DNA of 64,000 nucleotides, from NCBI GenBank assembly GCA_965219445.1, contig CBDCNQ010000004.1:928001-992000 (forward strand). The letters are read 5' to 3'. Both the position numbers and the translations under genes were made by a program. Source of the DNA: Longimicrobiales bacterium. Lineage in GTDB: Bacteria > Gemmatimonadota > Gemmatimonadetes > Longimicrobiales > Gaopeijiaceae. Shown piece after piece: positions 10,617-34,706 of the stretch (the stretch's first letter is position 1; every line of letters starts with the position of its first letter). Below the pieces are notes generated by a model. It worked only from the letters and a program-made list of their open reading frames with translations, made no database searches and was not told the DNA's origin.

Positions 10617-11622
10617 ATGACCCTGAAGACTACGTCGTCGCGATCGTCGGGCGCGCTGCTCCTCGCACCCATCGTGCTCTGCCTCACTGCCGCAGCGTGC
10701 CAGGTCCCCAACGCCCCGGCGCAGGCCACACCCGACCCGTCCGAGCCGTGGAACTGGTCGGAGGAGTACGTACGCTCCGTCGTGAACCAGGTCCGCGCGG
10801 GCCGCGACCTCAATCCGGAGTCGTGGCCGGGCGGGGCGCGGGTTGCGGTCCTGCTCTCCTTCGACGTGGACAACGAGACAGTCCAGGGGCTCCGCTCGGG
10901 AACGCCCAGCATCGGCCCACTGTCGCAGGGCGAATACGGGTCGCGCGTCGCGCTACCCCGCGTCGTGCGCCTGCTCGACAGCGAGAACGTCCCGGCGACC
11001 TTTTTCTTCCCGGCTTGGAGTCTCAAGCTCGCCCCTCAACAGGCCGATGTGATCAACGGGTCGGGGATGCACGAGATCGGGGTGCACGGATGGATCCACG
11101 AGCTGAATACTGCCCTCGACGGCCCGACGGAGGAGCGCCTACTCCGCCAGGCCCCTCGAGACGATCGAAGAGATCACGGGCGAGCGGCCGGTCGGCTACC
11201 GCGCCCCGTCGTGGAACCACAGCCCCAACACGCTCCAGATCGTGCGTGAGCTGGGCTTCCTCTATGAGAGCTCTCTCATGGCCGACGACCGTCCGTATGA
11301 ACTCATGCAGGCCGGCGAAGCGACCGGTGTCGTGGAGCTTCCGGTCGAATGGATTCTGGACGATGCGCCGCTCTTCAACCCACGTGGCAACAGCTACATG
11401 AATCCGCGTGACGTCATGCAGGTGTGGATCGACGAGTTCGACAAAGCGTGGGAAGAGGGCACGATGTTCTTGCTCACCATGCACCCGCACGTGAGCGGCC
11501 ACCGCTCACGGATTGTCGCGCTGGAGGGGCTGATCGACCACATGCAGGCAAAGGGAGACGTCTGGTTCGCCACGCACGAGGACGCGGCGCGGTATGTGAG
11601 GGAGCAGGCAGGCATGGACTGA
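10617..11622 (+). pseudogene. Polysaccharide deacetylase (PuuE/PgdA-like CE4) lipoprotein with a +1 frameshift near 11152
   Basis: SFDVD, HEIGVHGWIHE, GYRAPSW and LTMHPH. Removing one C from GCCCCTC (11151-11157) joins the frames as RQALETIEEITGERPVGYRAPS. Probably intact in vivo. Confidence 0.85.
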
Positions 11623-13639: not shown

Positions 13640-15208
13640 TCAGGCGGGATCCGCTGCGTACGTTTGGTGGAAGCCGGTGATTGCCTGGTATGCCGCGGCC
13701 ACTGCGAACAAGCGCTCTTCTCCGAACGGTGGCGCGGCCATGACGACGCCGCGGGGCACGGTTTTCCCCGTGTCGGTGTCGGTATCGAAACCGATCGGCA
13801 TGCACATCAACGGAATTCCCGTGCCGTCGAATGCTCCAGTCGCGGTGGTCAGGACCACGTCACACTGGTTGAAGAGCTGCGTCAGCATCCTGCTCAGCAG
13901 CAGATTGCGTGCTTGTTGGACCTTCACGTACGTATCCGCGCTCTGTAGCATCCCGTTGAGGAAGCGAGGAAGCCGGTCGGCGAAGTTCCGAACGTCCTTT
14001 CGCAGGTGCTCGATGAAGAATGCCGTCGGGTCGCCATGCGACCCGCCCAGCGGCTCGCCCGTCAGCTCCTCCCATTGATCCGGGAGCGTCACGTCCGGCA
14101 CGATCTGCACCGAAGGATTCCGCTCGAGCTCGGTGATGAAGGCCCGACGCAGCTCGTTTACGCGCTCGTTGTCGTCCGACAGATACTCGGGCCAGACGCC
14201 TACGCGGGTGGGCCACCGAAGCCGGGGGCGATCCCCTCCGAAAGCCGTAGCGGCCAGTGCGTAGTTTGGCGCGGTGGGGAGTCCGAGACTCCTTGCGTCG
14301 CTGGGGTCGGGCTGAGCCAGGACTTGTAGGAGAATCGCTGTATCCTTCGCGTCGCGGGCCATGACCCCGACGTGATCCCGTGTGTAGCTCAGAGGGATTA
14401 CGCCGTGCAGGGAGATGCGTCCGAACGTAGGCTTGATGCAGGTCAGTCCCTGTGCGTTTCCAGGCCCCATCACCGAGCCGCCCGTCTCGGTGCCGAGGCC
14501 CGCGATCGCAAGCCTGGCTGCAACCGCCGTTGCGGGCCCCGAGGACGAGCCGCCAGGGCTGTAGCGCCCGTCATCCGGACTCCACGCGTTGCGTGTCGTG
14601 GGTGTCGTGGTGCCGTACACTCGGGCACGGCCTCCGGCCAGGTTCCCCATCTGCCCCTTGCCGACAATGAGAGCGCCTGCGGCCCGTATGAGCGCGACCG
14701 CGGTGGCGTCGTAGTCGGGTTGGAATCCTTCGAAGACGAGCGACCCTCCTTCAGTGAGCAGATCAGACGTATAGAAGTTGTCTTTCGGCACCAGGCACAT
14801 CCCCCTGAGTGGCGAGCTTTGCTCGTCGTCAGGCGTTCCGTCCAGCTGGGCCAGCAGGTCTTCCCGATCGGGTCGGTCCGCGTAGGCCTCGTAGATGCCG
14901 TCGAACGCCTCGATGCGGTCTACGTACGCGTTGACCAGATCCGTGGGCGCGAGGGTCCCGGCGCGCATCAGGCTCATCGACTCCGACATCGTGAGCGTCG
15001 TGAGATCACTGACAGACTGAAGACGCACGTCCGTCGCGAAAGCCTCCGCAGTCACAACGGGACCCTTGGAACTCGCCGAAGCGGGCACCCTCGAAGGAAG
15101 GGAACCCGTCGCAGCTGCCGAGGAGACCCACGCCATCCGATTGAGAAACCAGCGACGAGAAACCCTCTCGTCCTGGGGGATGTCCATCGCTGAAGTCGCG
15201 TCGCTCAT
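13640..15208 (-). CDS. Amidase-signature family enzyme with Tat signal
   Basis: Tat motif SRRWFL. Triad motifs PKDNF, PGGSSSG and GTETGGS. ATG 15208 overlaps the upstream stop (ATGA). Confidence 0.9.
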   Translation of the reverse strand: MSDATSAMDIPQDERVSRRWFLNRMAWVSSAAATGSLPSRVPASASSKGPVVTAEAFATDVRLQSVSDLTTLTMSESMSLMRAGTLAPTDLVNAYVDRIEAFDGIYEAYADRPDREDLLAQLDGTPDDEQSSPLRGMCLVPKDNFYTSDLLTEGGSLVFEGFQPDYDATAVALIRAAGALIVGKGQMGNLAGGRARVYGTTTPTTRNAWSPDDGRYSPGGSSSGPATAVAARLAIAGLGTETGGSVMGPGNAQGLTCIKPTFGRISLHGVIPLSYTRDHVGVMARDAKDTAILLQVLAQPDPSDARSLGLPTAPNYALAATAFGGDRPRLRWPTRVGVWPEYLSDDNERVNELRRAFITELERNPSVQIVPDVTLPDQWEELTGEPLGGSHGDPTAFFIEHLRKDVRNFADRLPRFLNGMLQSADTYVKVQQARNLLLSRMLTQLFNQCDVVLTTATGAFDGTGIPLMCMPIGFDTDTDTGKTVPRGVVMAAPPFGEERLFAVAAAYQAITGFHQTYAADPA

Positions 15209-15477
15209 CGTGATTCCTCCTCCGTCCACGCGGTGAACGGAGCGGGATGCGGCACCGGCAGGTGAAACTGCGGATCGATGTCGAAGTCGGCAGCCGTGAC
15301 GTCCTGACGAAGAATCGATCTGGCGTTTTCGAGAAGGCGCTCCTGATCCATCGGCGCGTCTTCATCGGACTCGGGCAATACGGAGATGTCGATCCCAAGA
15401 AGCGCATAGCGCGTGAGAATGTACGCGTTCAGCTCTTCGTCGGTCGGCGGATCCGGGCGGGCGGGAACTTGCGTCAT
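15205..15477 (-). CDS. Small acidic protein (90 aa) translationally coupled to the amidase; possible GatC/AtzG-like partner
   Basis: GGAGG RBS before ATG 15477 and an ATGA overlap with the amidase. The function is inference only. Confidence 0.65.
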   Translation of the reverse strand: MTQVPARPDPPTDEELNAYILTRYALLGIDISVLPESDEDAPMDQERLLENARSILRQDVTAADFDIDPQFHLPVPHPAPFTAWTEEESR

Positions 15478-15666
15478 GCGGGCCTCCGGTAAGTGGCCGC
15501 TAGCGGCTTCGGATGGCCACCGTAGACCGGGGGCGGGCCACCCGTCAAGGCAGCGCGTCTCAAGCGATTGGCCTCTTCGAGACCGTGAAGCGATCATACA
15601 GCGGAAGACTCACCTCGATTCTGAAAAGGATGCGGCATGTCGATACACAGCGGCAAGCGCTCGCGT

Positions 15667-16731
15667 ATGGTGAATGGGCTGATCCTCTTGGCGCTCCTGA
15701 CCGTGGCCTGCGCCGACCCATCGGACATTCCTCAATTTCGAGTGGACCCGTTCTGGGCAAGCGAGCTGCCGAACAACTGGATATTGGGACAGGTCTCCGG
15801 CGTGGCGGTCGACAACCGGGACCACGTCTGGATCGTCCACCGGCCGCGCACGCTCGACGCCCGACAACGCGGCGAGGAAGGGATGTGCTGCGTGCCGGCA
15901 CCGCCGGTGATCGAGCTCGACCCGGATGGAAACGTGGTGCGCTCGTGGGGCGGGCCAGGCGACGGCTTCGAGTGGCCTGAGAACGAGCACGGCATCCACC
16001 TCGATCATCAGGGCAACGTCTGGATCGGCGGCAATGGGGCGGGTGACGCCCACGTGCTCAAGTTCACGGCCGATGGCGAGTTCCTCCTGCAGATCGGTCG
16101 GGCCGGCCAGAGCGCGGGCAGCAACGACACGGAGAACCTGGGCCGGCCGGCCTCGATCGAAGTGGACCCGGCGGCGAGCGAAGTTTACATCGCCGACGGC
16201 TACGGCAATCGCCGTGCGATCGTGTTCGACTCCGAAACCGGAGAGTACAAGCGGCACTGGGGGGCGTACGGTGAGCGCCCGGCCGACACGGACCTACCAC
16301 CGTACGACCCGGAGGCTGAGCCGATCCGCCATTTCCGCAGCCCGGTGCACGGCGTGGCCATCGCGAACGACGGTCTAGTGTATGTGGCCGACCGGACGAA
16401 CAACCGCTTGCAGGTGTTCCAGAAGGATGGTCAGTTCGTGACCGAGGCGTTCGTGCGAACCGAGACGCTCGGCAGTGGCTCAGCGTCCGGCGTGACCCTC
16501 TCGGAGGATGGGGACCAACGATGGCTCTTCATTCCTGACGGGACCAACAACGTGGTGTGGATCATGAACCGGTCCTCGCTCGAAGTAGTGGATTACTTCG
16601 GACGGCTCGGTAAGAACGCCGGTCAGTTCTACCGACTGCACAACCTGGCGATCGACTCGCGAGGTAATCTCTACACCACCGAGGTCAACGTGGGACAGCG
16701 CCTGCAGAAGTTCGATCGGGTCGGAAGATGA
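15667..16731 (+). CDS. NHL-repeat lipoprotein, peptidyl-alpha-hydroxyglycine alpha-amidating lyase (PAL)-like
   Basis: Lipobox-like TVAC. Motifs EHGI, ADGYGNRR, VHGV, ADRTNNR and LHNL. Confidence 0.85.
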   Translation: MVNGLILLALLTVACADPSDIPQFRVDPFWASELPNNWILGQVSGVAVDNRDHVWIVHRPRTLDARQRGEEGMCCVPAPPVIELDPDGNVVRSWGGPGDGFEWPENEHGIHLDHQGNVWIGGNGAGDAHVLKFTADGEFLLQIGRAGQSAGSNDTENLGRPASIEVDPAASEVYIADGYGNRRAIVFDSETGEYKRHWGAYGERPADTDLPPYDPEAEPIRHFRSPVHGVAIANDGLVYVADRTNNRLQVFQKDGQFVTEAFVRTETLGSGSASGVTLSEDGDQRWLFIPDGTNNVVWIMNRSSLEVVDYFGRLGKNAGQFYRLHNLAIDSRGNLYTTEVNVGQRLQKFDRVGR

Positions 16732-16861
16732 CCGGAGCGGGCCAGAGCGAAGCCTGTCGGTTGGACCAGGGATGGCCCCTCAACATGAGTAATCGATATG
16801 TTCCGCTTCGAAGGGCCACAGAAGACCACTCACACACCACCCCCACGCGTGGAGGACCCGT

Positions 16862-18601
16862 ATGAAGCACGTTCGCTTGCTGCTTAGCGGTGCGGTTATT
16901 GCGTTTACCCTGGGAGTAGTCGGGACGGACGCACAAGTGAGTGATTTTCAGCCGGTTACCGACGAGGTGCTGCGTAATCCCTCTGACGCTGACTGGCTTC
17001 AGTGGCGACGCACCTACGATGGTTGGGCTTACAGCCCGCTCGACCAGATCGACCGCGAGAATGTGCGGAATCTGCAGTTGGTGTGGTCTAGAGCGCTGAA
17101 CGCTGGACAGGTAGAGCTCATCCCACTTGTGTACAATGGAGTCATGTACATTCCCCATCCTGGGAGTGTAATCGAGGCCGTCGACGCCACTACGGGTGAT
17201 CTGATTTGGCGATACCGCCGTGATACCTCCGAAGGCGCCGGCAGCGCCTCCGGTGTTCGGAACATCGCAATTTATGACGACAAGATTTTTTTCGCGGTGC
17301 CGGCCGGTGGCTTTCTGATCGCCCTAGATGCCCGAACGGGAGCGGTGGTTTGGGAAACTCAGATCGAGGCGTTGACTCGCCACACGTCCGGCCCGATCGT
17401 AGTTGGCGGCAACGTCCTCACCGGGCGGCGCTGTACTCCCGGCCCTGCCGGCGGTGTAGTAGGAGGCTGCTTCATTGCTGCTCACGATGCCGAAACCGGC
17501 GAAGAATTGTGGCGCAGGTTCACCATCGCCCGTCCAGGTGAGCCGGGTGGGAATAGCTGGGGTGGCCTTCCTCTCAATCGCCGGTGGCACGTATCGGTCT
17601 GGATGCCTGGTACCTTCGATCCGGAGCTCAACTTGGTATACTGGGGGACTGGGGTTCCCGGCCCGTATCCTGAAGTAGCGCGCGGCTCAGATGGTGGGGA
17701 TCTGCTGTATTCCAACTCTACGCTCGCCTTGAACCCGGAGACAGGTGAAATCGTCTGGTACTATCAGCATCTGCCCGGCGACGATATGGATATGGACCAC
17801 GTCCATGAGCGAATTCTAGTAGACATCTCTTTTGAGCCTTCGAATGCGCTCGAGTGGTACAACCCCGCCGCTGCCGGCGAGGAGCGCAAGGTGCTGTGGG
17901 CAGCTGGAAAAGCGGGCACCCAGTTCGTGCTCGATCGTGAAACCGGGGAGTTCCTGTGGGCACGACCGATGCTTCACCAGAACGTCATAGTGGACATCGA
18001 TGAGGCGGGTCGTGTCACAAAAAACGCGGGCCTTGTCCACAAGGACTTCGGTGACGTCTTGGTCGCTGGTCCCAGGGCTGGGAAAGACTGGTGGTATGGA
18101 ACCTATAGCCCACTGACTAACGCCGTTTATCAGCCGCTGCTCAACGCGTGGGTTGAGCAGACAAGTACCGTATGGGACGGGGCTGGTAGCGGCACGATAC
18201 GGAGAACCATCCCTTCACCCGATCAGTCAGGATTCGCCGGCATGGTCAAGGGGTACAACGTCGCGACGGGCGAGCTTTTGTGGGAATACAAACAAGCTGC
18301 GCCGTGGCTCGGTGGGCTGGTATCGACTGGCGGTGGCTTACTCTTCGGTGGTGACATCAATCGGAGATTCAGGGCGCTTGATCAAGAGACCGGAGAGGTG
18401 CTGTGGCAGTCCATCCTCAACAGCAGAATCACGGGCGGCGCGATCAGTTATGCGGTCGATGGCCGGCAATACGTTGCGGTGGCGGCGGGCGGCGGAAGTT
18501 CGAGCGCATACGAGACGTTCGGCATTACGCCCGAGCTGGATCTGGAGGCGCCTCGTGGCAGCAACACCATTTTCGTGTTTGCCTTGCCCGAGTCCGAATA
18601 G
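16862..18601 (+). CDS. PQQ-binding beta-propeller dehydrogenase
   Basis: Signal peptide. WLQWRRTYDGWAYSPLDQI, repeated ALDAxTGxxxW motifs and YAVDGRQYVAV. Confidence 0.9.
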   Translation: MKHVRLLLSGAVIAFTLGVVGTDAQVSDFQPVTDEVLRNPSDADWLQWRRTYDGWAYSPLDQIDRENVRNLQLVWSRALNAGQVELIPLVYNGVMYIPHPGSVIEAVDATTGDLIWRYRRDTSEGAGSASGVRNIAIYDDKIFFAVPAGGFLIALDARTGAVVWETQIEALTRHTSGPIVVGGNVLTGRRCTPGPAGGVVGGCFIAAHDAETGEELWRRFTIARPGEPGGNSWGGLPLNRRWHVSVWMPGTFDPELNLVYWGTGVPGPYPEVARGSDGGDLLYSNSTLALNPETGEIVWYYQHLPGDDMDMDHVHERILVDISFEPSNALEWYNPAAAGEERKVLWAAGKAGTQFVLDRETGEFLWARPMLHQNVIVDIDEAGRVTKNAGLVHKDFGDVLVAGPRAGKDWWYGTYSPLTNAVYQPLLNAWVEQTSTVWDGAGSGTIRRTIPSPDQSGFAGMVKGYNVATGELLWEYKQAAPWLGGLVSTGGGLLFGGDINRRFRALDQETGEVLWQSILNSRITGGAISYAVDGRQYVAVAAGGGSSSAYETFGITPELDLEAPRGSNTIFVFALPESE

Positions 18602-18612
18602 GAACGTCTGCT

Positions 18613-19566
18613 CTACGGGGTGACCGTAACGTTCACATAAGCGTTGGTCCAACAGCACTGGCTGCTAAAGCTCCCGTTGAGCACTTGCACGAGCAGGACG
18701 TAGTCGCCGGGTTGGTTGAATGTCACTTCCGTAGTCTGCTCCGTCGGATCCGGGCCCACCTGGAACCGGCTCCTCCGCGGTCGGAAGCTCGTCGTAGCCG
18801 CCGGTCCACTGAATTTACTCCACTTCAGTGACTGCTCGACAAGGACGCCCTCTTCATCCGGGTCCAAGTCATCGAACGCGACAGTGCCCTCGTCGGGGTC
18901 GGACACCGAGATCGTAAGCGATAGCGGGTTTCCCACCCGAGTCGTGAAAGGCCCGGCTGTCATCCCACCCTTGCCTCTCCCCTCCGACCCGAATGGCTCG
19001 ACGAATCGGACCACCGGCGCCGTAAGAACGCCGGCTACGCCAGCATCATTTTCGAAATCCATCAACGCCGCCCCGACGGAATTCACGAGGTTGTCCACCC
19101 TCCAGGGGCGAGACGTAATGTGGCCAGGGACCCTGAAGGTTTGACCATCAATTCGCAGATTCCACCAAACGCGCTCGCTCCCAATATCGCCTGGCACGTT
19201 CACGGCGAAAACGCAGTATTCCCGAACCATGCGGCCAGGACGAAGATCATCCCCGGGTCCCAGGGCGGGAAAGTGAGTCGGCTGAGCCCCCTGAAAGCGG
19301 GCCGGCTCGATGAAGTTGTTCTCACCTATCGGGATGTCGAGTGATTCTTCCCGATTCAGGTTGAAGAATCCGAAGCATAGATCGTACGTCCCGTTTTCGT
19401 TGGCGTACCATCCCTCGAACACGGGGATTACGGGCTGGCCGGACGCGCGCACAGTTCGTAGCTGCCAGTCCATTTGTGTTACCGGAGGCCGCGTCGCCAC
19501 CTGCGCATGCAAAGCTGGCGTGCCTGCCAGGAGAAGCCCAGCAATCAGAAATCCAGCCAGGGTCAA
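18613..19566 (-). CDS. Exported protein of unknown function with C-terminal PKD/Ig-like region; follows the Cu monooxygenase gene
   Basis: GQPVIPVFEGWY...LCFGFFNLN and C-terminal QCCWTN. The likely TTG start at 19566 is 4 bp after the upstream stop (ORF track start 19641). Confidence 0.7.
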   Translation of the reverse strand: MTLAGFLIAGLLLAGTPALHAQVATRPPVTQMDWQLRTVRASGQPVIPVFEGWYANENGTYDLCFGFFNLNREESLDIPIGENNFIEPARFQGAQPTHFPALGPGDDLRPGRMVREYCVFAVNVPGDIGSERVWWNLRIDGQTFRVPGHITSRPWRVDNLVNSVGAALMDFENDAGVAGVLTAPVVRFVEPFGSEGRGKGGMTAGPFTTRVGNPLSLTISVSDPDEGTVAFDDLDPDEEGVLVEQSLKWSKFSGPAATTSFRPRRSRFQVGPDPTEQTTEVTFNQPGDYVLLVQVLNGSFSSQCCWTNAYVNVTVTP

Positions 19567-19570
19567 CGCT

Positions 19571-20968
19571 CTACCGGCTGTTGACGGCGATCGGCTGCTG
19601 GCGGCCCTCCCTCTCTGCGACCAGCCGCGCGAAGTCCTCATCGTCGTAAAACGTCATCCCCAACCGTAATCTGAACATTTCGTCGACGGTCCGTGAGCCA
19701 CCTGTTATCCACTGGTCGGGATCCGTGTTGGCGGCGTTATTCTCAGTGTTGTCAAACACCGACGTTATGATGACCGTGGTGCCCTTCGGCAATAACGGCC
19801 TCGCATCGTCCTCGTACAGGAACGCGGTGTGCCAGCGCTGGTCGCAGTCGAGCTTGTTGATCAACTCATACTGGCCGTCAGGATAGACTACCTCTAAGAC
19901 ATTGTATGCGCCGAGCAGGTGCATATGACCCCGGATAGCGTGAACCTGGGCATTGCCCTCCAGTCGAAATGCGCTCCGGAAAGTCGCCTGGCTATTCGGT
20001 GCAATGAGGAGCGGAGTGTCCTGCATACCCGGCATGCTACCCTGGTCGAACACCACGTCGCCCTCGGTCGGATAGGGAAGCTCTCCCTCCGGGTACAGCC
20101 ACACGCCTACCTGCAACGCGACCTCTTCCAGATCCGCTTCGAGCTTCGCCGGGTAGAAATGCGGGTTGAAAGTGATCAGGTCTCCCTCCTTGAGCAGTCT
20201 GCCCGTACCCTCAGGGAAGATCGATCCTTGCACTCCCACCGCCGCTTCCGCCAGTTGGTCTCGATTCCCCCTCACCGCGTGGGTGCCCGGGCCCTGATAC
20301 AGATCCTCTGGCGCCCGATTCGCCACGCGAGCGGAGCCGTGATGGAAGACAGATGCCGATCCGGGGTTCATGGGCCTGAGCTCCACGGCCCTGACCCACC
20401 GCTCCCCGGCGACGCCCATGTCGCTCGTCATCTCCACGGGGGGCAGATTCGGCCATTGGTCCATCCCGTCGGCCTTCACCGTGTAGAACGGCGAAGTGAT
20501 CACCACGTCCGGAGCACGACCGAACTCATCTTCGTACGCCCACGCCTCTCCCCATGCGGGCCAGTCGATCGGAGGCGGCTCGTCCGCCGGGTCACCGCGC
20601 GGCGCGCCCGCATCCACCCATCGAACGATCGTTTCGATCTCCTCACTGCTCAGCGACCGGTCATTCTTGAAGCTCTGGATCCCCACCTCCGTGTCCATCG
20701 GCCACGGCGGCATGATTCGCTTTGATACCTGGTCCTTGATCAGGGGCGCCCACGAGCTTGCGTCTTCGTAGGTCAAGAGGGACATCGGAGCGACGCTGCC
20801 CGGCCGATGGCACACCTGGCAGTTCTCCTGAATGATCGGCGCCACGTCCTTCGCGTACACGACAGCGTCGTCCGCTTGGGCTGAAGCCAGCGCTGGCAAC
20901 ACCAACCCAGCCAGCCCTCCCCACAGCAAGCGTTCAAGCCTCTTTGGAAAGAACGTTTTCCCGTTCAT
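19571..20968 (-). CDS. Cytochrome c - copper type II (PHM/DBH-like) monooxygenase fusion, exported
   Basis: Signal peptide ends ASA. Heme motif CQVCH plus MPPW. Cu-ligand pattern FHH, PHFY, HMH and DEM. Confidence 0.8.
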   Translation of the reverse strand: MNGKTFFPKRLERLLWGGLAGLVLPALASAQADDAVVYAKDVAPIIQENCQVCHRPGSVAPMSLLTYEDASSWAPLIKDQVSKRIMPPWPMDTEVGIQSFKNDRSLSSEEIETIVRWVDAGAPRGDPADEPPPIDWPAWGEAWAYEDEFGRAPDVVITSPFYTVKADGMDQWPNLPPVEMTSDMGVAGERWVRAVELRPMNPGSASVFHHGSARVANRAPEDLYQGPGTHAVRGNRDQLAEAAVGVQGSIFPEGTGRLLKEGDLITFNPHFYPAKLEADLEEVALQVGVWLYPEGELPYPTEGDVVFDQGSMPGMQDTPLLIAPNSQATFRSAFRLEGNAQVHAIRGHMHLLGAYNVLEVVYPDGQYELINKLDCDQRWHTAFLYEDDARPLLPKGTTVIITSVFDNTENNAANTDPDQWITGGSRTVDEMFRLRLGMTFYDDEDFARLVAEREGRQQPIAVNSR

Positions 20969-21103
20969 CTCACGGTGCTCCTGCTGGTGAGTTTCGCAGC
21001 TATTTTTCCACTGATGATACGTAACCCACCATAACAATGCAGGCAAGCCGCCCACCGCCGTACGGGTCGGATCGCTCCCAGGTAGTAACGGCTCGCCGGG
21101 TAT

Positions 21104-21132
21104 TTGACAGGCCCCAGAAGGGCCGATATTCT
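21104..21132 (+). promoter_or_regulatory. Putative sigma70 promoter for the amidohydrolase
   Basis: TTGACA-N17-TATTCT. Confidence 0.6.
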
Positions 21133-21245
21133 TGCCGTTCTTTACCTGTGCGTACTGCGGTAGCTCTTGGCTGGATGATGGGAACCTACTGGACAATGGG
21201 AGCCCAAATGTTTTACTCCCGCCAAGGCGTGACAGGAGGGGTTCC

Positions 21246-22640
21246 ATGCGCTGGACAAGGATGTCAAGGGCGGCCGTTGCCTTAACGGCCTCGATCTGGA
21301 GCACAGCTGGGTCCCTCGTAGCCCAGGGGGGCGCAGGGCAAGGAGACAATCCATTCTTCGCGCCGGCCGACCAGGTGGTCGCGATTCGTGCGGGTCGTTT
21401 GTTTGATGGCACGTCATCCATGCACTTGGCAGATCAAATCATCCTCATCAGGGGCGATCGGATTGTAGACGTGGGTTCGAACGTGCGGATCCCGTCCGGG
21501 GCCACCGTGATCAATCTGGGTGGGGCGACGGTGCTTCCGGGATTGATCGACACGCACCTTCACATGATGGGGAACGGGACGCCTGGGCAGCAGTGGATTG
21601 TGGGGGTGCAAGCGGCCCAGATGGCCTTGAACGGAGGCTGGACGACCGTGGTCGACCAGGGCTCGCGCGAGAATTTACCCTGGGCCACGATCGAAATGAA
21701 GAACGCGATCAATAGCGGCCAAATGCTTGGGCCACGAATGCAAGTTGCAGGACCCGTCCTGAATCCGCGGGGCGGCGGGGCCGTACGGCAACTGCCGATC
21801 GGCTACGAGGACCTTCAGGTTCCTGGCGATAGGCTGGGCGTGTCGGGTCCATGGGAAGCCCGCCGCGCCGTTCGCACGCTCAAGTTGTACGGCGCCGATT
21901 GGGTAAAAGTCTACAGCACGTGGGACTTCCTGGACCCGGCGCAGGGCAGGTTTTACCAGGCGGACGGGACGATGCTCGGCCTTCCGGCGCTGACCTTCGA
22001 GGAATTCGAGGCAATCGCGGACGAGTCTCGCCGGTTGGGGTTGAGAACCACATGTCACACCTATGGGCACGAAGAGGCCGCCTATAGCTGCGTGCGTGCG
22101 GGATTCGACGTGCCCATGCATATGATGGACCTCGACGACACGCTCCTGCAGGAGGTCGTCGAGAACGGTACGTCTGTGCAGATTACCTTCAACGATGCAT
22201 ACAATGGTGGATTTCCCGAGGGACGGGGTCCGCGCTGGATCAAGACGGAGGAGCTCTTCGTCAGACTGCTCGCCGCCGATATACCGATCCCGTTCGGGAG
22301 TGGCTCCCAGGGCTCTCCGTTCTCAGACACCAGGCCGAGAAGGATCGGTAAACAGGCGAACATTTTTTCCGTATTCGTAAGGCTGGGGATGACCCCGGCG
22401 CAGGCGCTTAACTCGGCCATGATGGTCGCGGCCGACGACTTGAATTACGACTGGGCAGAGGACATAGGGAGCATCGAGGCCGGAAAGTACGCCGACATTG
22501 TTGCGGTTGCGGGTGACCCGCTGGTCGATATTACCGAGATGGAGCGGGTCCGGTTTGTGATGAAGGGTGGAGTGGTGATCCGCGACGACCTCACGGACGA
22601 CCGGCCCGAGATCCTGTCCCTGCGCGGGGCCGGGAACTGA
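21246..22640 (+). CDS. Amidohydrolase family protein (Xaa-Pro dipeptidase-like), exported
   Basis: AGGAGG RBS and signal peptide. LPGLIDTHLH, WVKVY, TCHTYG and GSIEAGKYADIVAV. Confidence 0.9.
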   Translation: MRWTRMSRAAVALTASIWSTAGSLVAQGGAGQGDNPFFAPADQVVAIRAGRLFDGTSSMHLADQIILIRGDRIVDVGSNVRIPSGATVINLGGATVLPGLIDTHLHMMGNGTPGQQWIVGVQAAQMALNGGWTTVVDQGSRENLPWATIEMKNAINSGQMLGPRMQVAGPVLNPRGGGAVRQLPIGYEDLQVPGDRLGVSGPWEARRAVRTLKLYGADWVKVYSTWDFLDPAQGRFYQADGTMLGLPALTFEEFEAIADESRRLGLRTTCHTYGHEEAAYSCVRAGFDVPMHMMDLDDTLLQEVVENGTSVQITFNDAYNGGFPEGRGPRWIKTEELFVRLLAADIPIPFGSGSQGSPFSDTRPRRIGKQANIFSVFVRLGMTPAQALNSAMMVAADDLNYDWAEDIGSIEAGKYADIVAVAGDPLVDITEMERVRFVMKGGVVIRDDLTDDRPEILSLRGAGN

Positions 22641-22650
22641 CTGAGGAGCC

Positions 22651-23583
22651 TCAAGGAACCTTCGAGTACTTCCTCAAGTAGTGGCTTCGATTCGAGGCGG
22701 CGTAGACATTCCCCGACGGGTCCGCAGCGACCCAATGGATGCCTTCTGTTCCCTCGATCACACCCAGGAGCTTCCCGTCGCTGGCGTCGGCGATCCACAC
22801 TTTGGCGTTGACGCCATCGGCGACAAAGAGCCGGTCATCCTTGGTCAGGAACAAGGCGTAGGGGGTACCCAGGTGGGTCCACTGGTCGAGAAAAGCGCCT
22901 TCAAAATCGAAAATCTGCACGCGACTGTTTCCGCGGTCGGCCACCAACACCCGATTCCGCGAGTCGATGGTGATGCTGTGCACCGTGTTGAACTGGCCTG
23001 GCTCCGTGCCTGCGTCGCCCCAGTCCTTGATGAACTCGCCGGTCCTGTCGAACTTGGCCACTCTCGTGTTGACGTAACCGTCCGACACGAAGAAATCGCC
23101 GTTCGGAGCGACAGCCACATCGGTAGGCCGGTTGAACGTGCGCGGTCCGTCCCCGGCAACGTCGTACCGACCTAGGGTCATCAGGAGCTCGCTCCCGCTG
23201 GGGCTCCACTTCTTGACCTGATGACCCTGACCGTCGATGGTCCAAATATATCCTTCGTGGTCGACGCGGATGGCATGGGTCCACATGGCGATGTCCTGGC
23301 CCCACTCCTTTACCAGATTACCCGCCCGATCGAGGTTCCAAACATTGTTGGCGTCGCGCCTGAATGCGTAGATATTACCCTCGTCATCGGTGGTTACCCC
23401 GGATACTCCACCGATGTCTTCCGGCCCGGTAATCCAGTCCTCGACCATTCGATAGCTGCCGCCGGATAGTCGGTCCTGGGCCGTATAATTCGCCGACGCT
23501 TCGGTGCTCTCCGCTGGCCCACAGCTCGCTCCGAACGCAGTGATCACGCCAAGAGACGGCAACCACCGCGCGAAAGGCCTCAT
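22651..23583 (-). CDS. NHL-repeat lipoprotein, PAL-like
   Basis: Lipobox-like GASC. Motifs THAI, SDGYVNTR, VHSI, ADRGNSR and IHWV. ATGA overlap with the ankyrin gene. Confidence 0.85.
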   Translation of the reverse strand: MRPFARWLPSLGVITAFGASCGPAESTEASANYTAQDRLSGGSYRMVEDWITGPEDIGGVSGVTTDDEGNIYAFRRDANNVWNLDRAGNLVKEWGQDIAMWTHAIRVDHEGYIWTIDGQGHQVKKWSPSGSELLMTLGRYDVAGDGPRTFNRPTDVAVAPNGDFFVSDGYVNTRVAKFDRTGEFIKDWGDAGTEPGQFNTVHSITIDSRNRVLVADRGNSRVQIFDFEGAFLDQWTHLGTPYALFLTKDDRLFVADGVNAKVWIADASDGKLLGVIEGTEGIHWVAADPSGNVYAASNRSHYLRKYSKVP

Positions 23584-25064
23584 CGAGGCGAACCGGGCTC
23601 AGTCGCCGTGATGGCGCCCTCACCGACAAGAAACTCCGCGACCGAGTCGTACCCCAGGGCGACCGCGGCCTCAAGTGCCGTGCTCGCCCCACCCACACCC
23701 CGATTTCGTGCATTCCCGACGGCATTCAGATCGACACCGGCCTCCACCAGCAACTTGACGGTGTCCAGCACCCTCGCCTCATCAGCCTCGAGAACAGTCC
23801 ACGCCCTCCCGGTACCCATCTTGACCGCTGCCATCAGGGTCGTGGTAATCTCCTCCTGTCGTGGAGACAGAATGCCGCCCTGACCCCCACCGTAGTACAC
23901 GCCGTGATGCACGAACATCGGATCGGCTCCGTGCTCCAGCAGGCCGCGTACGATGGGCGGGGTACTGAAACGAGCAGCCAGCCAGAGTGGAGTGGCTCCA
24001 ACCCACGCTTTGTTCAGATAGAAATCGGTGGTCGATCCGCGTTGGTGGGGTGTGAAGTCCCCGAGCGGGAGGTTGGGATCCGCGCCCTGTGCCAGGAGAA
24101 GCTCCACTGTCTCCTCGTTCTGACGCAGGACCGCTGCGATCAGCGGCGTGAAGCGGTGGGCTCCCGCGTTCGGGTCGGCGCCCTGCTCGAGCAGAAACTC
24201 TACGAATTCGGGGAATTGCCCAGGGAGAATCTGATCACGATCGAAATACACGAGCTGCCTGGTTGTCTGCTCCCGGATCAGGAACTGTTCTCCAAAGTCG
24301 GCGTAGGTCGCGATGGCCAACGGTGTAGTGCCCCAGGCGGATGGCGCGTCCACGTCGGCGCCAGCGGCCACGAGGTACTTCGCGGACTCGAGGTCGCCCA
24401 CCCGCGCGGCGAACATCAGCGCGGTGTTGCCTCCATGCCTGAACCATCCCTGATGCTCCGGGTGGGCATGCGGGGACTGGGCCATGTACTGGTCCCAGGC
24501 ATCCGATGCGGTATGCACGTCCGCACCGTGCTCGATCAAGACCTTCACGACGTCCGGGTGGCGCTGAGCGGCCGCGAACATGAGCGGCGTCTGGCCGCGG
24601 GCCCCGTGGGCGTTCACGTCGGCGCCTTTCTCGAGGAGCATCCTGACCACCTCGGGGTTACCCGAGCGAGAGGCGGTGATGAGCGGCGTCTCGCCGAGTA
24701 GCAGCGGCGCGTCGGGATCTGCTCCCGCAGCTAACAACTCGTCGGCCACGGCCGCGCTGCCGTTCCGGCTGGCAGCCCAGATCGGCGTTGCACCGAGATC
24801 ATTGGCGATGTTCACGTCGGCGCCGGCGCGAATGAGAAGCTCTACGCTCTCGAAATCGTCCCTGTAACTCGCCCACAGGAGAGCGGTGGAGCCGTCCGCC
24901 GTCTGCACGTCGACGTCGGCTCCTGCATCCAAGAGCGCCCGCAGCGCGCCCCGGTCACCGTTCTTTGCCGCGTCGACCAGCGGGTCATCACTCCAACCGG
25001 CCCCGATGAGGATCAGGGCCAGCCCGAGTGAGGTCAGGCATTGCAGCCTGCGTGTCATCCACAT
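23580..25064 (-). CDS. Exported ankyrin-repeat protein
   Basis: Many GxTPL/TALxxAA...LLxxGADVN repeats after a signal peptide. Confidence 0.9.
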   Translation of the reverse strand: MWMTRRLQCLTSLGLALILIGAGWSDDPLVDAAKNGDRGALRALLDAGADVDVQTADGSTALLWASYRDDFESVELLIRAGADVNIANDLGATPIWAASRNGSAAVADELLAAGADPDAPLLLGETPLITASRSGNPEVVRMLLEKGADVNAHGARGQTPLMFAAAQRHPDVVKVLIEHGADVHTASDAWDQYMAQSPHAHPEHQGWFRHGGNTALMFAARVGDLESAKYLVAAGADVDAPSAWGTTPLAIATYADFGEQFLIREQTTRQLVYFDRDQILPGQFPEFVEFLLEQGADPNAGAHRFTPLIAAVLRQNEETVELLLAQGADPNLPLGDFTPHQRGSTTDFYLNKAWVGATPLWLAARFSTPPIVRGLLEHGADPMFVHHGVYYGGGQGGILSPRQEEITTTLMAAVKMGTGRAWTVLEADEARVLDTVKLLVEAGVDLNAVGNARNRGVGGASTALEAAVALGYDSVAEFLVGEGAITATEPGSPR

Positions 25065-25087
25065 CCTCCCGACTCCGTGGCCAGTCC

Positions 25088-26440
25088 CTACATCTCGGCG
25101 AGTGTATCGATCTCGAGTCGGCCGGTACTGCCCCCGACCCGACCGAGCGGCATGTCGAACTTGTCGAGCAGTGTGACGAGTAGGTTCGCCATCAGGGGTG
25201 AGTCGAGATAGTTGAGATGCCGGCCGCCGTTGAGGCGTCCATTCCCACCGCCGGTCAACATCAGGGGCAGATCCACGTGCGAGTGCCGCGTGCTGTTGGA
25301 AATGCCGCCGCCGTACAGGATCGTCATATGGTCGAAAAGCGAGCCATCGCCGTCGGGCGTCTGGCGAAGCTTCTCCAGATATCGGGTAACCAACTCGACG
25401 TGGTACCGATTGATCTTCGACATTCGCTCGATCAACTCGGGAACGTTGTTGTGGTGCGACAGCGGGTGGTGCGCGTCGGGCACGCCGATCTGCGGGTACG
25501 GTCGAGCGTTCTGCTCCTTGCCGAACATGAACGAGCTGACCCTGGTCAGGTCAGCCTGGAAGGCCAGGAGCTGAAGGTCGAACATCAGCTCCATGTGCTC
25601 TTCATATGAGGTCGGTGCGCCCTCCGGTGCTTCGAAGAACGGCAGCTCGATGTCGATCTGTTCCTCGGCAATTTGAATGCGCCGTTCGACGTCACGGACC
25701 GCCTCTGCATATTCATCGATCTTCAGGTTGTCCTGCGGCCCGAGCTCTCTCTTGAGAGCCGCCACCTCATCGATTACCGAGTCCAGAAGGCTCCGCTGCT
25801 GCCGCAGACGCCGTTCCCGCGCTCCCCGCTCCGTGCTGCCGCTGTCGCCAAACAACCGCTCGAACACCGCTCGCGGGTTGGACTCCATGGGCAACGGCTG
25901 GGTTGGGCTGCGCCAGGAGACGGTATGTGTGTAGACACAATTCAGTGTCAGATCACAAACCCCCGCGTTGGCGGGTTTGTCCATCGAAAGCTCTAGCGAC
26001 GCGACTTGCGTCTCCTTTTCGAATCGCCTGGCTAGCAACTGGTCGAATGAAACGTCTGCCACCGTCTCCGTGTTGTTACGCCCATGACGTGTCGTGCCCG
26101 TCAGGAACGACCCGGAGGCGCCGGCATGGTTGCCGCTCCAAGTCGCATCGAGGCCGGAGAGCACCAACATCTGGTCCTTGAACGGTGCCATCGGTTCCAG
26201 GATGGGTGAAAGCTCGAAGTCCCTTCCCACTCCCTGTGGGGTCCAGTACTCCATGGCCATCCCGTTCGGCACATAGATGGTCTGGAACCGATGCGCGGGG
26301 TCGGCGCGCGCCTGCCCGCGCAGACCGAACCTGGTTGGCGACATGGCTTCCAGGAAGGGCAACGCCAACACCGCCCCCGCACCCCGCAGGACAGTCCGAC
26401 GGGAGAGTGGTCTTCCAATGATGAATGCCATCTGTCGCAT
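25088..26440 (-). CDS. DUF1552 domain protein (Tat signal)
   Basis: LSRRTVLRGAG...LPFLEAM, YVPNG, NPRAVFERLFG and HHPLSHH. Confidence 0.9.
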   Translation of the reverse strand: MRQMAFIIGRPLSRRTVLRGAGAVLALPFLEAMSPTRFGLRGQARADPAHRFQTIYVPNGMAMEYWTPQGVGRDFELSPILEPMAPFKDQMLVLSGLDATWSGNHAGASGSFLTGTTRHGRNNTETVADVSFDQLLARRFEKETQVASLELSMDKPANAGVCDLTLNCVYTHTVSWRSPTQPLPMESNPRAVFERLFGDSGSTERGARERRLRQQRSLLDSVIDEVAALKRELGPQDNLKIDEYAEAVRDVERRIQIAEEQIDIELPFFEAPEGAPTSYEEHMELMFDLQLLAFQADLTRVSSFMFGKEQNARPYPQIGVPDAHHPLSHHNNVPELIERMSKINRYHVELVTRYLEKLRQTPDGDGSLFDHMTILYGGGISNSTRHSHVDLPLMLTGGGNGRLNGGRHLNYLDSPLMANLLVTLLDKFDMPLGRVGGSTGRLEIDTLAEM

Positions 26441-26453
26441 CTCCTCTGCGCTG

Positions 26454-26487
26454 TGGAACCGGTCCTCTGCTGGAACCGGTCCTCTGC
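26454..26487. repeat. Perfect 17-bp tandem duplication (TGGAACCGGTCCTCTGC x2)
   Basis: Copies at 26454-26470 and 26471-26487, between the DUF1592 and DUF1552 genes. Confidence 0.9.
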
Positions 26488-26506
26488 TATCGAACCAAGC
26501 GACCGC

Positions 26507-29101
26507 TTACTGCGTCATACGTGCCCGCATCAAGAAGCCAGGGCTCTCGACAATTCCGGCGATGACCGAGGACCAACGGTACCCGTCGGCCTTCGCGTCG
26601 TTCACGATCCTGCGTACCGCGGGGCGATCGTAGTACTCCAATCTACGCCCCAGAGCGTAAACCATGAGCTTTGCGGTCACGGTGTTGGCAAACTGATCGC
26701 CCTGATCGAGCAACATCGCACGCAAGCCCGCAAATCCATCCACCGCCGCACCGCTCGGCGAGGCCCCGGAATCATCGACCGGATTGCCCTTTCCGTCGCG
26801 TGTCCGCCAAGCCCCAACGGCGTCGAAGCTCTCCAGCGCGAACCCGAGCGGATCCATGACCGAGTGGCACGTGGCGCACACGGGATCGGTCCGGTGTGAC
26901 TCCAGCCGTTCACGTATCGTTGCGTCCGGAGAAAACCTCTCGTCCTCGATGTCGGTGTTCACACCAGCCGGAGGTGCGGGCACGGGCGTGCCCAGAATGT
27001 TATCGAGCAGCCATTTGCCACGCAGCACGGGCGAAGTCCGGTTGGGGTACGACGTCAGGGTCAAAAGCGCGCTTTGCCCGAGCAATCCGCCACGCTCCTG
27101 GAGGTTGGGGAGGACAACCCGCCGCATGCGGCTGCCGTAGACGTCCGAAATCCCGTAGTGCCGTGCCAGCCGTTCGTTGAGGAACGTGTAGTCCGCGCTC
27201 AAGAGGTCGAACACGCTCCGGTCCTCGGTGATCGTGCTGGCGACGAACATTTCGGTCTCGAGGCGCATCGCCTCCAGCAGGTTGTTGTCGAATCGAGGAA
27301 ACAGGTCTTCGTCCGCGACCTCGTCCGCGAGGACGCGTAGATTCAGCCACTGACTGGCGAAACCGTTGGTAAGAGCATCGGCGGCGCGCGGATCGGCCAA
27401 CATTCGCAGCACCTGCTGTCTCAGAACCGTGGGGTCCGTAAGCCTTCCCTGCTCCGCCAGGTCGAGGAGTGTTTCATCTGGAATGCTGCTCCACACGAAG
27501 AAAGACAGCCGCGAGGCGATCTCCAGGTCGCTGAGGCGATAGGCGTCGGACGCCTGCGACGGCGGATCCCGATGGACGCGCAGCAGAAAAGCCGGGTCAA
27601 CCAGCATCCGTTCGAGGGCGAACTGAATTCCCGCCTCGAAGCTCTGCCCGTCTTGCCTACCCTGATCGAAGAACTCCATCAACTTCTGGACGTCCTCGCT
27701 CGTGACCGGTCGCCGATAGGCGCGCCGGGCCATCCGTTCGACGATCCTGGCAGCGCACTCCTGCTCCTCCGCTTCGGCCTCCGGCTCGCAAACGAAGATC
27801 TCCCGACGACTGGGGGTGTCGCCCGTCGATACGGAGATCTGGTACGGGCCTTCGATCATGAGATCGTTCACGCCCTGATAGTCCATATACCTGGCGTCAT
27901 CCTTCAACGTCTTCCCCCACTCCCGCAGCGGCGGTTGTGGGAGAAGATTTTCCAGCTCCCACATGTACATGGGGAATGCCACTCCGACGACGTGGGGTCC
28001 GCCCGTGATGAACGTGCGAACCTGCAAATGATCGTCCGCCGCGCCTTGCATGTAGGCTTCCCACTCCCAGTCGCCCTCGAAGCCAGGGCTACCGGCCCCT
28101 TCGTAGGTGCCCGGAGCGGGTCGATATGCCCCAGCCTCCCCCCCGGCTGTAAACCGGCCCATCAGCCCACCATCGAGGCGGAACTCGATCTCTTGTGGCC
28201 ACCCCATCCCCTTGAGGTAGTCCGCATAATTCGCAGTCAGGTTGACCTTGATGAGGTACTCACCATCGGCTGGGAAGTGGTATCGGATCGCCATGCCCCC
28301 ACGGGATCCGAGCGGCAGATCTTCGTCCATCAGATCCGTCTGTTTCAGGAGCTCGTCGACTCGGAAGATCTTGAAGTCCGCCCCTACGGGGGGCAGACCT
28401 GTCGCCAGACGCGTCACCTGACGGGCCACCGACACGTATCGTTCCAGATGGGCTGTCGAAATCGTGAGGGACGCTGCGATGTTGTCGAAACTACCGTCCG
28501 CCGTCTCGTCCCCGGGCAAGAGGTCCCTTACCTCGATATCGAGCGCCAACAGGTCGCGAATCGCGTTGTTGTACTCCGTGCGGTTCAAGCGGTGGATTGC
28601 GTCGATCCTGCCTGGATACGGATTGGCGGCCCACGCCGCGTCGAGCTCCGTCTCCAACTGGCCCGCCACGGCCGCATAGGTATCGCGATCGGGCCGCCGC
28701 CGCCCGACCGGTGGCATCGTGCCCGTCCGAAGTTTCGTGACCACCTTCTCCCACGTTGCGGGATGGGTGCCCGGGCGCGACGCATCCAGGGTGTCGAACG
28801 ACAAGTTGGCATTGCCTAGTCTCTCGTTATGACAGACGACGCAGTATTCGTTCAGGACGGCCTCAACATCAACTGCCTGTTGATGGACTTCCGGCTGGCT
28901 GTCATCGAACCCGGGAGCTTGCAGCGATGGGGTCTGCCCCGATGGGGTCTGCACTGGTTGGGCGTGCCCGAGCGATCCGCCGGCACCCCACACGAACACC
29001 CCCACGATCCCAGTGCTCAGCAGGAGCGCGTAGCCAGTCGCATATCCAGCCCGCGAGCGGTCCCTTGACATCTGTCGGGCGTTCGGCCTGATGAACCGCA
29101 T
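26507..29101 (-). CDS. DUF1592/DUF1587/DUF1588/DUF1585/DUF1595 multi-domain diheme cytochrome c protein
   Basis: CVVCH, HRLNRTEYNNAIRDLL, ASRLSFFVWSSIPD, RTSPVLRGKW and CATCH. Confidence 0.9.
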   Translation of the reverse strand: MRFIRPNARQMSRDRSRAGYATGYALLLSTGIVGVFVWGAGGSLGHAQPVQTPSGQTPSLQAPGFDDSQPEVHQQAVDVEAVLNEYCVVCHNERLGNANLSFDTLDASRPGTHPATWEKVVTKLRTGTMPPVGRRRPDRDTYAAVAGQLETELDAAWAANPYPGRIDAIHRLNRTEYNNAIRDLLALDIEVRDLLPGDETADGSFDNIAASLTISTAHLERYVSVARQVTRLATGLPPVGADFKIFRVDELLKQTDLMDEDLPLGSRGGMAIRYHFPADGEYLIKVNLTANYADYLKGMGWPQEIEFRLDGGLMGRFTAGGEAGAYRPAPGTYEGAGSPGFEGDWEWEAYMQGAADDHLQVRTFITGGPHVVGVAFPMYMWELENLLPQPPLREWGKTLKDDARYMDYQGVNDLMIEGPYQISVSTGDTPSRREIFVCEPEAEAEEQECAARIVERMARRAYRRPVTSEDVQKLMEFFDQGRQDGQSFEAGIQFALERMLVDPAFLLRVHRDPPSQASDAYRLSDLEIASRLSFFVWSSIPDETLLDLAEQGRLTDPTVLRQQVLRMLADPRAADALTNGFASQWLNLRVLADEVADEDLFPRFDNNLLEAMRLETEMFVASTITEDRSVFDLLSADYTFLNERLARHYGISDVYGSRMRRVVLPNLQERGGLLGQSALLTLTSYPNRTSPVLRGKWLLDNILGTPVPAPPAGVNTDIEDERFSPDATIRERLESHRTDPVCATCHSVMDPLGFALESFDAVGAWRTRDGKGNPVDDSGASPSGAAVDGFAGLRAMLLDQGDQFANTVTAKLMVYALGRRLEYYDRPAVRRIVNDAKADGYRWSSVIAGIVESPGFLMRARMTQ

Positions 29102-33662: not shown

Positions 33663-34706
33663 CTATTCGGGCCGGTTTCCCACCGACTGCCTTTCCTGGT
33701 AACGCGCGCCACTCAAGACGTTCGAGAGCGAGTAGTTACCCTCGTGACAGGCGTACTCGTAAATCATCTGGTCGAACGCGTGCCAGGGGATCTGCCCGCC
33801 CCACACCTCGGTGTAGGTCCTCGGGTCTTGAACCTCGAACTCGTAGAGGATGTTGTCCTCGTCGAGCCGGGTGATGCGCTCGATCACCTTCAGATCCTCG
33901 GAATTCGGGATCTTGTCGCTCGACTCATTGAAGCCCATGTCAGGGTGGATGTTGGTGGTCTCGACCACGAGGGTGTTACCCTCCCAACGGCCCCACGAGT
34001 CGCCGAACCAGGGCCTTACGTGGGCCGGCAGTCGATTCGGCTCACCGAGCCGGATGATCCGCGTGTCGTGGATCATCTCCCCGTGAATCACGACGTAGTC
34101 CGCCGTCTGGATGACACGGATGTTTTGGTTGTATCCCCCGGAGGGTGTCATCGGAGGCCCGAGGGTGGCCGTGGGGCTCGAGGCGTAGTAAACGATGCAC
34201 CGATCCGCCAGCGGCCGTAGCTCCGGATGGTCGTATTCGCCGAACTGGTCTCGGAACCCGTGGTACTCGTCCTTCCGCTCCTGGCCCTCTGCCGTAAGCG
34301 CGGGTATCCGGCCATTCGACGGATAGGTGATGAGTGAGGTCCGGGGCTCGCCGTTGACGATGGCCACGCGCGCGCCTTGCTCGAACCAGACTTGGTTGTA
34401 GCTACCGACCCCGCCAGTCACTTCCGGTGCAGGGCGGTTCGGGTCGCTCGGCTGGGAACCACGGACGACACGGTCCACAAATCCTTGTTCGAGCTGGGCA
34501 ACCTCTTCGGGCGTGTAGACCGGACCCTGGTTCCCTCGACGTTCGAACGGCGTCATCGTCGCGTTTCTCCACGTTCCCTGAAGGTCCGGATGACCATCGG
34601 GCGTCCTGGGCATCACCCACTGCTGAGCCGCGACCGGGGCGAAAAGCCCTGCCGCCGCGGTCACGAGGCAGAGCCACAGAAACGAAGTCGAATGTCGTGT
34701 CCTCAT
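33663..34706 (-). CDS. Exported protein of unknown function; paralog of 2275-3396
   Basis: GGAGG RBS before ATG 34706 and a signal peptide. GHPDLQGTW ... YEYACHEGNY. Confidence 0.8.
   Translation of the reverse strand: MRTRHSTSFLWLCLVTAAAGLFAPVAAQQWVMPRTPDGHPDLQGTWRNATMTPFERRGNQGPVYTPEEVAQLEQGFVDRVVRGSQPSDPNRPAPEVTGGVGSYNQVWFEQGARVAIVNGEPRTSLITYPSNGRIPALTAEGQERKDEYHGFRDQFGEYDHPELRPLADRCIVYYASSPTATLGPPMTPSGGYNQNIRVIQTADYVVIHGEMIHDTRIIRLGEPNRLPAHVRPWFGDSWGRWEGNTLVVETTNIHPDMGFNESSDKIPNSEDLKVIERITRLDEDNILYEFEVQDPRTYTEVWGGQIPWHAFDQMIYEYACHEGNYSLSNVLSGARYQERQSVGNRPE

Follow-up and report, generated by a model that had tools for sequence, protein, structure and literature searches.

The question raised by one stretch of a Longimicrobiales genome is whether bacteria hold a counterpart of PHM and PAL, the paired enzymes of peptide amidation. 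The stretch lies in a window of 64,000 nucleotides (contig CBDCNQ010000004.1, positions 928,001 to 992,000; "the window" means this whole stretch), and a sequence-only reading had placed there a cytochrome-c-fused, PHM-like copper monooxygenase between two PAL-like proteins, all in one periplasmic pathway of oxidative N-C cleavage. The locus as drawn, one PHM-like and two PAL-like genes, is not a conserved system. Its core unit is a two-gene cassette of the monooxygenase and a partner, and a family-level link between PHM-like and PAL-like genes survives for those monooxygenases that carry an arginine at the position of PHM R240. The features of the cassette are the following.

19571..20968, minus strand: exported protein of 465 aa, a cytochrome c joined to a candidate two-copper monooxygenase of predicted PHM/DBH fold (the monooxygenase)
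20807..20821, minus strand: CQVCH haem c attachment motif, monooxygenase residues 50-54
18613..19641, minus strand: exported partner protein of the monooxygenase with two predicted beta-sandwich domains and a C-terminal CCWTN; start uncertain, probably near 19560

The motifs first noticed in the monooxygenase are all present in its translation: a hydrophobic, signal-peptide-like leader at the N terminus, C50-Q-V-C53-H54, F-H209-H210, P-H270-F-Y, R346-G-H348-M-H350 and D-E-M431. By motif, H209, H210 and H270 would be the ligands of the CuH copper, and H348, H350 and M431 those of CuM. These six residues and the CxxCH are invariant in an alignment of 100 sequences (the query plus 99 of 120 hits listed) and, in a more diverse set of 111 members, 108-111 have them. 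All 111 of this set also keep M86, which is part of an MPPW motif and likely the distal haem ligand. The only two cysteines of the protein both lie within the haem motif. The family is large (6139 hits among 8000 scored candidates), and searches of PDB, Pfam and NCBIfam with the sequence gave no copper-monooxygenase match, Cu2_monooxygen and Cu2_monoox_C included; PF03712 is carried by 13% of the members of two look-alike Atlas clusters, whose names are automatic only.

Comparison by predicted structure bore out the proposed kinship. The model (predicted local distance difference test, pLDDT, 88) matches the PHM/DBH fold at Z 17-19.6, far above other folds. More specifically, the 26 best entries of a structure search were all PHM or DBH (Foldseek E 3e-11), with VIA Z of 19.6 to DBH (296 residues aligned, root-mean-square deviation 3.6) and 17.6 to PHM (243 aligned, deviation 2.8), the next-best fold reaching Z 7.5, and both PHM beta-sandwich subdomains appear in the predicted model. 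The candidate ligands, His-His and His for CuH followed by His-x-His and Met for CuM, have the order and spacing of PHM H107/H108/H172/H242/H244/M314, copper ligands described together with the salt bridge of R240 to the C-terminal carboxylate of the substrate (PMC12164859). Placed by motif offset, R346 stands two residues before the first CuM histidine (H348), as R240 does in PHM. R433 and R435 fall at the M431 offsets of N316 and Y318, which we take to be substrate contacts of PHM and which are not kept; with R346, they suggest a pocket that is likely anion-binding yet unlike that of PHM. By its ligand motifs and predicted fold the protein behaves as a PHM-family enzyme, and it is very probably a PHM-type copper monooxygenase; to call it PHM proper (EC 1.14.17.3) would go beyond these tests.

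The partner gene, directly downstream of that of the monooxygenase, had been overlooked in the sequence-only reading, as had a 4-bp gene overlap and the paralogue load of the genome, to which we return below. It has no Pfam or NCBIfam family match. In the source genome, 15/15 partner homologues are found <=300 bp from a PHM-like open reading frame (ORF); elsewhere, 71/78 loci, whose record titles name mostly Gemmatimonadota and Acidobacteriota, have a same-strand partner <=400 bp away, and it accompanies the monooxygenase orthologue in 7/7 orthologous loci. The Cys-Cys pair at its C terminus, C329/C330, is kept in 12 of the 15 paralogues and in 70/81 locus copies, some of which are incomplete. 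Fold searches with the partner model gave generic Ig-like matches only (best Z 10.6), mostly to the C-terminal domain, with the N-terminal domain barely covered.

A complex of monooxygenase and partner was predicted with a score of 0.82, a mark attained by 116/157 solved complexes vs 2/215 mismatched pairs, and the best of three controls scored 0.00. Across runs at least 58% of the contacts agreed, with a partner pLDDT of at least 77. In the predicted interface, the monooxygenase loop 415-428, just before M431, rests against partner residues adjoining the Cys pair; this location suggests that the partner helps to load copper, relay electrons or shape the CuM site. We consider the partner a probable subunit of the monooxygenase. 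The partner paralogues that lack Cys-Cys (C3:153323, C3:156049 and C5:1391673) flank Glu-type (EPH/EAH) monooxygenases, suggesting that both subunits vary together. We also noted a family of exported, unannotated proteins that the genome carries 14 times, two of them in the window (33663-35012 and 2275-3465); a homologue directly follows a PHM-like gene in three loci (L011, L015 and L056), two of them without the usual partner.

The same evidence bears on whether the protein is an oxygenase at all. An oxidase or dehydrogenase, or a copper or electron-transfer device whose haem passes electrons to the respiratory chain, would agree with the general knowledge that haem fusions occur on dehydrogenases too, with an obligate Cys-Cys partner, for which PHM and DBH offer no equivalent, and with searches for pqqC and pqqE that found no source of pyrroloquinoline quinone (PQQ), their controls being silent. 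However, the full PHM-type CuH/CuM ligand set and the position of the substrate-binding arginine are kept, and substrate-pocket positions differ by subfamily, as those of enzymes would, so that we regard a non-oxygenase as very unlikely.

Around the cassette, the window carries the genes from which the pathway had been assembled.

15637..16731, plus strand: PAL-like NHL propeller 1 (PAL1), with R69, H118, Y189, H238, R253 and H335
16862..18601, plus strand: PQQ-dehydrogenase-like propeller without CxxCH, a candidate electron source
21246..22640, plus strand: exported amidohydrolase, Xaa-Pro dipeptidase-like (below cut-off)
22651..23583, minus strand: PAL-like NHL propeller 2 (PAL2), with R76, H103, Y170, H202, R217 and H283
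23580..29101, minus strand: DUF1592 (PSCyt), DUF1552 and ankyrin genes, the conserved context of PAL2
13640..15229, minus strand: amidase with a twin-arginine-like leader, a neighbour only
34972-36330: copC-like ORF and copD, the copC-like ORF (34972-35376) being a by-eye call

Domain annotation of the window confirmed the positions first given for the PQQ-like protein, the amidase, the amidohydrolase and copD, and the start assigned to PAL1, 15667, proved to be the second Met of an ORF that begins at 15637. Along the strand, PAL1 and the PQQ-like gene (+) are followed by partner and monooxygenase (-), the amidohydrolase (+), and PAL2, ankyrin, DUF1552 and DUF1592 (-); these four transcription directions uphold the original warning that the genes are not in one operon. 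In a promoter and terminator scan, sites were no more numerous than in shuffles. The region was found in pieces among the contigs of two sequencing runs.

In the source genome (4.56 Mb), 21 ORFs are PHM-like, 42 NHL/PAL-like and 38 PQQ-like, and with such a load of paralogues adjacency by itself is weak evidence. We compared seven orthologous monooxygenase loci (L001-L004, L019, L109 and L116; 57-80% identity; three with a short flank). Orthologues of the PQQ-like gene and of the amidohydrolase each lie beside the monooxygenase orthologue in 2/7, an orthologue of PAL1 or PAL2 in 0/7, and the amidase was not found beside any of the seven. A third PAL-like gene is co-directional with the monooxygenase orthologue in 2/7 loci; in the source genome it is on contig C2 (658842-660029), beside another PHM-like array.

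These comparisons largely refute by synteny a split PAM system of dedicated parts, with the flanking PAL-like gene or genes, the PQQ-like protein, the amidohydrolase and the amidase serving one pathway. The six active-site residues kept in PAL1 and PAL2, a state shared by 14 of 38 paralogues, and the two loci each for PQQ-like and amidohydrolase orthologues argue for it; the absence of PAL1 and PAL2 from all seven loci, the four transcription directions, the overlap of PAL2 with the ankyrin gene in whose operon it travels, and the fact that the PAL-like gene co-transcribed with an orthologue is a third one, here on another contig, argue against. We judge such a system unlikely, and it is equally improbable that both flanking PAL-like proteins are the dedicated lyases of the monooxygenase, as had been proposed: their orthologues stand elsewhere in relatives. 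A place for the amidase in the proposed system is likewise not supported. As for copCD, its position some 14 kb from the monooxygenase was right, and we do not uphold it as a dedicated copper supply, this distance being the sole argument for its membership.

The PAL-like assignment itself holds. In sequence profiles, PAL1 and PAL2 match the six-bladed NHL propeller of PAL along its length, each as one continuous stretch, and the three His motifs, DGY and DR seen at first, together with an HR/RR motif, correspond to kept equivalents of rat PAL R533, H585, Y654, H690, R706 and H786 in both. For the three histidines, which we take to bind metal, and for R533, we assume the roles that they have in PAL. 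The summed scores of TRIM-family NHL domains against PAL1 and PAL2 equal or exceed those of PAL. Tyr and Arg form the catalytic dyad of PAL (human 651/703; PMC10303134). That the two are lipoproteins is plausible, with imperfect lipoboxes (T-V-A-C and G-A-S-C). Among the 38 full-length PAL-like paralogues of the genome, 17 have the Tyr and 14 all six residues; in a swapped type, the Tyr is replaced by His (18/38) and the third His in most cases by Glu (16). The bacterial copies thus share with PAL the propeller and the equivalents of its active site, and differ from it in standing alone, in numbering about 40 paralogues, half of them of the His/Glu variant, and in the tie of PAL2 to another operon.

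PAL2 closes a DUF1592-DUF1552-ankyrin operon and shares a 4-bp overlap with the ankyrin gene upstream of it. Its relatives follow DUF1592-DUF1552 in 7/9 fetched loci (L119 and L124-L129 included), two further ones agree by coordinates, and a PHM-like gene lies within 20 kb in 0/9. PSCyt/PSD genes have been called of unknown function (PMC5615132). The conservation in this operon of a PAL2 with an intact active site hints that the module also makes a carbinolamide-type product. For PAL1, three close orthologues were found, two with another PHM-like paralogue at a distance of some 9 kb and one without any.

A link between the families appears when PHM-like genes are grouped according to their residue at the site of PHM R240. 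A PAL-like gene lies <=3 kb from 18/59 Arg-type vs 1/51 other PHM-like genes, and among six control families none showed a neighbour bias towards the Arg-type at p <0.05. Across six paralogue-rich genomes and at the same distance, the counts were 17/59 vs 5/79 (Mantel-Haenszel odds ratio 5.4, p 0.006). The bias persisted when tandem copies were merged (16/54 vs 5/58, p 0.025) and when the source genome was removed (12/47 vs 5/71, p 0.044), and PQQ-like neighbours showed no bias between the subtypes (18/59 vs 18/79, p 0.40). The PHM-PAL link survives in this form, for the Arg-type; taken over all PHM-like genes, no excess beyond control families was seen, as detailed below. One weak PHM-like ORF without HH (C3:50271) was left out of the neighbourhood, subtype and pairing counts; for the three-relative and six-genome tests two non-PAL NHL ORFs were left out and split hits merged; and the set of 138 genes is without a weak hit in G006, a frameshifted gene in G007 and the fragments of G107/G221.

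The second element of context concerns glyoxylate. Within the genus, 8/12 genomes gave a single match to malate synthase, and that of the source genome is a malate synthase G, over cut-off. There, on contig C5 (1290240-1297490; L236 10741-17991), a partner, an Arg-type PHM-like gene and a CxxCH-bearing PQQ-like gene are followed by malate synthase G on one strand. The malate synthase comes after a same-strand partner and Arg-type PHM-like gene in 5/8 genomes (the source genome, G005, G006, G008 and G010; the versions in relatives are L237, L110, L239 and L240), with the CxxCH-bearing PQQ-like gene in between in four of the five and a PAL-like gene inside the cluster in three (G005, G008 and G010). 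The exceptions are G004, where malate synthase stands beside non-Arg PHM-like genes, and G007, whose malate synthase is a different one with no PHM-like gene near; the loci compared were seven of the eight, all but that of G011. Isocitrate lyase was over cut-off in 0/12 genomes of the genus, with a positive control in 5/14. This gene context fits glyoxylate as a putative product of such cassettes.

The proposal that we favour would run as follows. A periplasmic dehydrogenase or a cytochrome c pool would deliver electrons to the Met86-ligated haem and from there to CuH and CuM, the haem likely taking the place of ascorbate. With O2 activated at CuM, R346 would hold the carboxylate of an N-acyl-glycine-type substrate, and the adjacent carbon would be hydroxylated. 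A PAL-like lyase from the genome-wide pool, in which the two flanking ones are probably not specific, would split the carbinolamide into amide and glyoxylate; amidases could then release ammonia and acid from the amide, and malate synthase G could fix the glyoxylate. As a whole, a haem-fed two-gene cassette that hydroxylates glycine-type compounds, with interchangeable PAL-like lyases yielding glyoxylate, is the best explanation that we can offer, and we give it slightly less than an even chance; its central step, glyoxylate-yielding N-C cleavage together with PAL-like proteins, stands just as close to the balance point. The catabolic N-C cleavage of the sequence-only reading keeps a footing at the level of the families, through the PAL bias of the Arg-type and the malate synthase link; that these flanking genes form one system with the monooxygenase is not supported (0/7 for PAL1 or PAL2 in synteny).

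The following observations weigh against the proposal. Within the source genome, PAL-like genes lie nearer to PHM-like genes than expected at random, and they do so no more than other expanded exported families, with 7/42 vs 19/152 at <=3 kb (p 0.45) and 12/42 vs 37/152 at <=10 kb; in three relatives the counts near PHM-like genes are 9/113 for PAL-like and 17/127 for PQQ-like genes. Co-occurrence across 101 genomes of the order was rejected as evidence: of 34 PHM-positive genomes, 33 are among the 44 PAL-positive ones and 32 among the 38 DUF1592-positive ones, so that DUF1592 tracks PHM equally well (kin are not independent in these tallies, which include genomes flagged unpublished, G106 in all three and G055 in that of PAL; nothing else here draws on G055, G106 or G178). 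Close PAL-like genes occur with no PHM-like match in G014 (97% complete) and G036 (95%). As to the subtype, the test was post hoc on genomes that are kin; 42/59 Arg-type genes have no PAL-like gene <=3 kb, the same-strand version is not significant (10/59 vs 3/79, p 0.10), and 79/138 paralogues lack the Arg. The Arg-type genes all belong to a single clade of 66 tips with weak support (0.68), which makes an effect of the residue inseparable from one of the clade. Pairings are many-to-many, 28 pairs of 12 PHM and 16 PAL clusters forming 23 combinations. The cluster with malate synthase goes back to a single inherited event within one genus, it involves a paralogue of the window monooxygenase and is seen in 0/78 wider loci, its PAL-like protein is the His/Glu variant without the catalytic Tyr, and isocitrate lyase was the only glyoxylate source checked in the genus. 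Finally, no pqqC (0/5) or pqqE (0/12) was over cut-off in the genomes searched, where controls were silent too, and PQQ is only a possible cofactor of the PQQ-like protein.

Several of these points would be expected if the modules were independent, the cassette hydroxylating another carboxylate or an aromatic compound (DBH-like, or dealkylating to a product that breaks down spontaneously) and the PAL-like proteins being unrelated carbinolamide lyases in shared gene islands. The lack of an overall PAL-like excess over control families, the association of PAL2 with DUF1592-DUF1552-ankyrin rather than with PHM-like genes, the two genomes with PAL-like genes alone and the paralogues without the Arg all agree with independence, as does DBH as the top structural match, but by just ~2 Z units over PHM. 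It is countered by the bias of PAL-like neighbours to the Arg-type, with PQQ-like neighbours unbiased, and by malate synthase G behind an Arg-type cassette in a genus whose genomes gave no isocitrate lyase over cut-off. Independence is a serious possibility that we nevertheless expect to be wrong.

Other genes of the window add detail. The PQQ-like protein at 16862-18601 stays below cut-off, with similar scores, for both PQQ dehydrogenases (TIGR03075) and "acido-empty-quinoproteins" (TIGR04528), and it is one of four PQQ-like propellers in the window (the others at 29798-31768, 40173-42059 and 50551-52026). Amidohydrolases of the kind at 21246-22640 usually carry a catalytic Asp at the strand-8 site; here the four metal-site residues are kept and FGSGSQG occupies that site. 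The motif, as FGSG(S/T)QG, is conserved in two relatives, and the orthologue adjoins the third PAL-like gene in three genomes. Further away lie a polysaccharide-deacetylase-like gene (10617-11622) with a frameshift near 11150-11250, either an assembly error or a true break, and a bacterial type IB topoisomerase (56891-58027; Pfam Topoisom_I and Top1B_N_bact).

Among known systems, PHM (the catalytic core of rat PAM; PDB 1PHM, 1OPM and 5WJA) shares with the monooxygenase the predicted two-subdomain fold, the order of copper ligands, the Arg two residues before the first CuM histidine and export. The bacterial protein differs in its 14-19% identity, its N-terminal cytochrome c, its obligate partner gene, the Arg at the N316 and Y318 positions, the confinement of its two Cys to the haem motif, the lack of a PAL fusion and the 20-30 paralogues per genome. 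DBH-type enzymes carry DOMON as their extra domain. DBH (PDB 4ZEL) and tyramine beta-monooxygenase thus resemble the bacterial protein in the predicted copper core and in having an extra N-terminal domain ahead of it, which is a cytochrome c here and not DOMON; an Arg in place of an amine-type pocket and the bacterial origin also set it apart. Bacterial PAL-like sequences are mentioned in evolutionary papers. In bacteria, iron enzymes are described that use related chemistry: MicC and MovX in the amidation of RiPPs, peptides that ribosomes make and that are modified after translation (PMC12912966), and MgdH/MgdL on methylguanidine, MgdL being a dedicated lyase of a catabolic operon that its authors state to be without homology to PAL (PMC12508155). 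According to these descriptions, a carbon bound to nitrogen is hydroxylated and an aldehyde then lost, as in our proposal, by iron enzymes with folds unrelated to PHM. Among titles and abstract openings, with subscription journals largely outside the coverage, we found none that dealt with a haem-fused PHM-like enzyme from bacteria.

To our knowledge, PHM and DBH have been studied almost solely as animal enzymes, and the route of electrons to their copper sites is still debated. A soluble relative from bacteria that carries its own haem and comes in thousands of natural variants would open this question to optical spectroscopy, and it could yield an ascorbate-free amidation catalyst. For the bench, the malate synthase G cluster on contig C5 is a better target than the window locus. 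In its widest form, our reading is that PAM chemistry serves as periplasmic catabolism: banks of haem-fed, ascorbate-free, two-subunit PHM-type enzymes and PAL-type lyases would take glycine-type units off N-acylated compounds or peptides in the form of glyoxylate, for malate synthase G to assimilate without isocitrate lyase, making this the counterpart in bacteria, and possibly the source, of animal peptide amidation. We advance this tentatively, as an idea with a real but minority chance of being correct. If true, three large families that lack annotation, in Gemmatimonadota and Acidobacteriota that are abundant but uncultured, would gain a role in catabolism.

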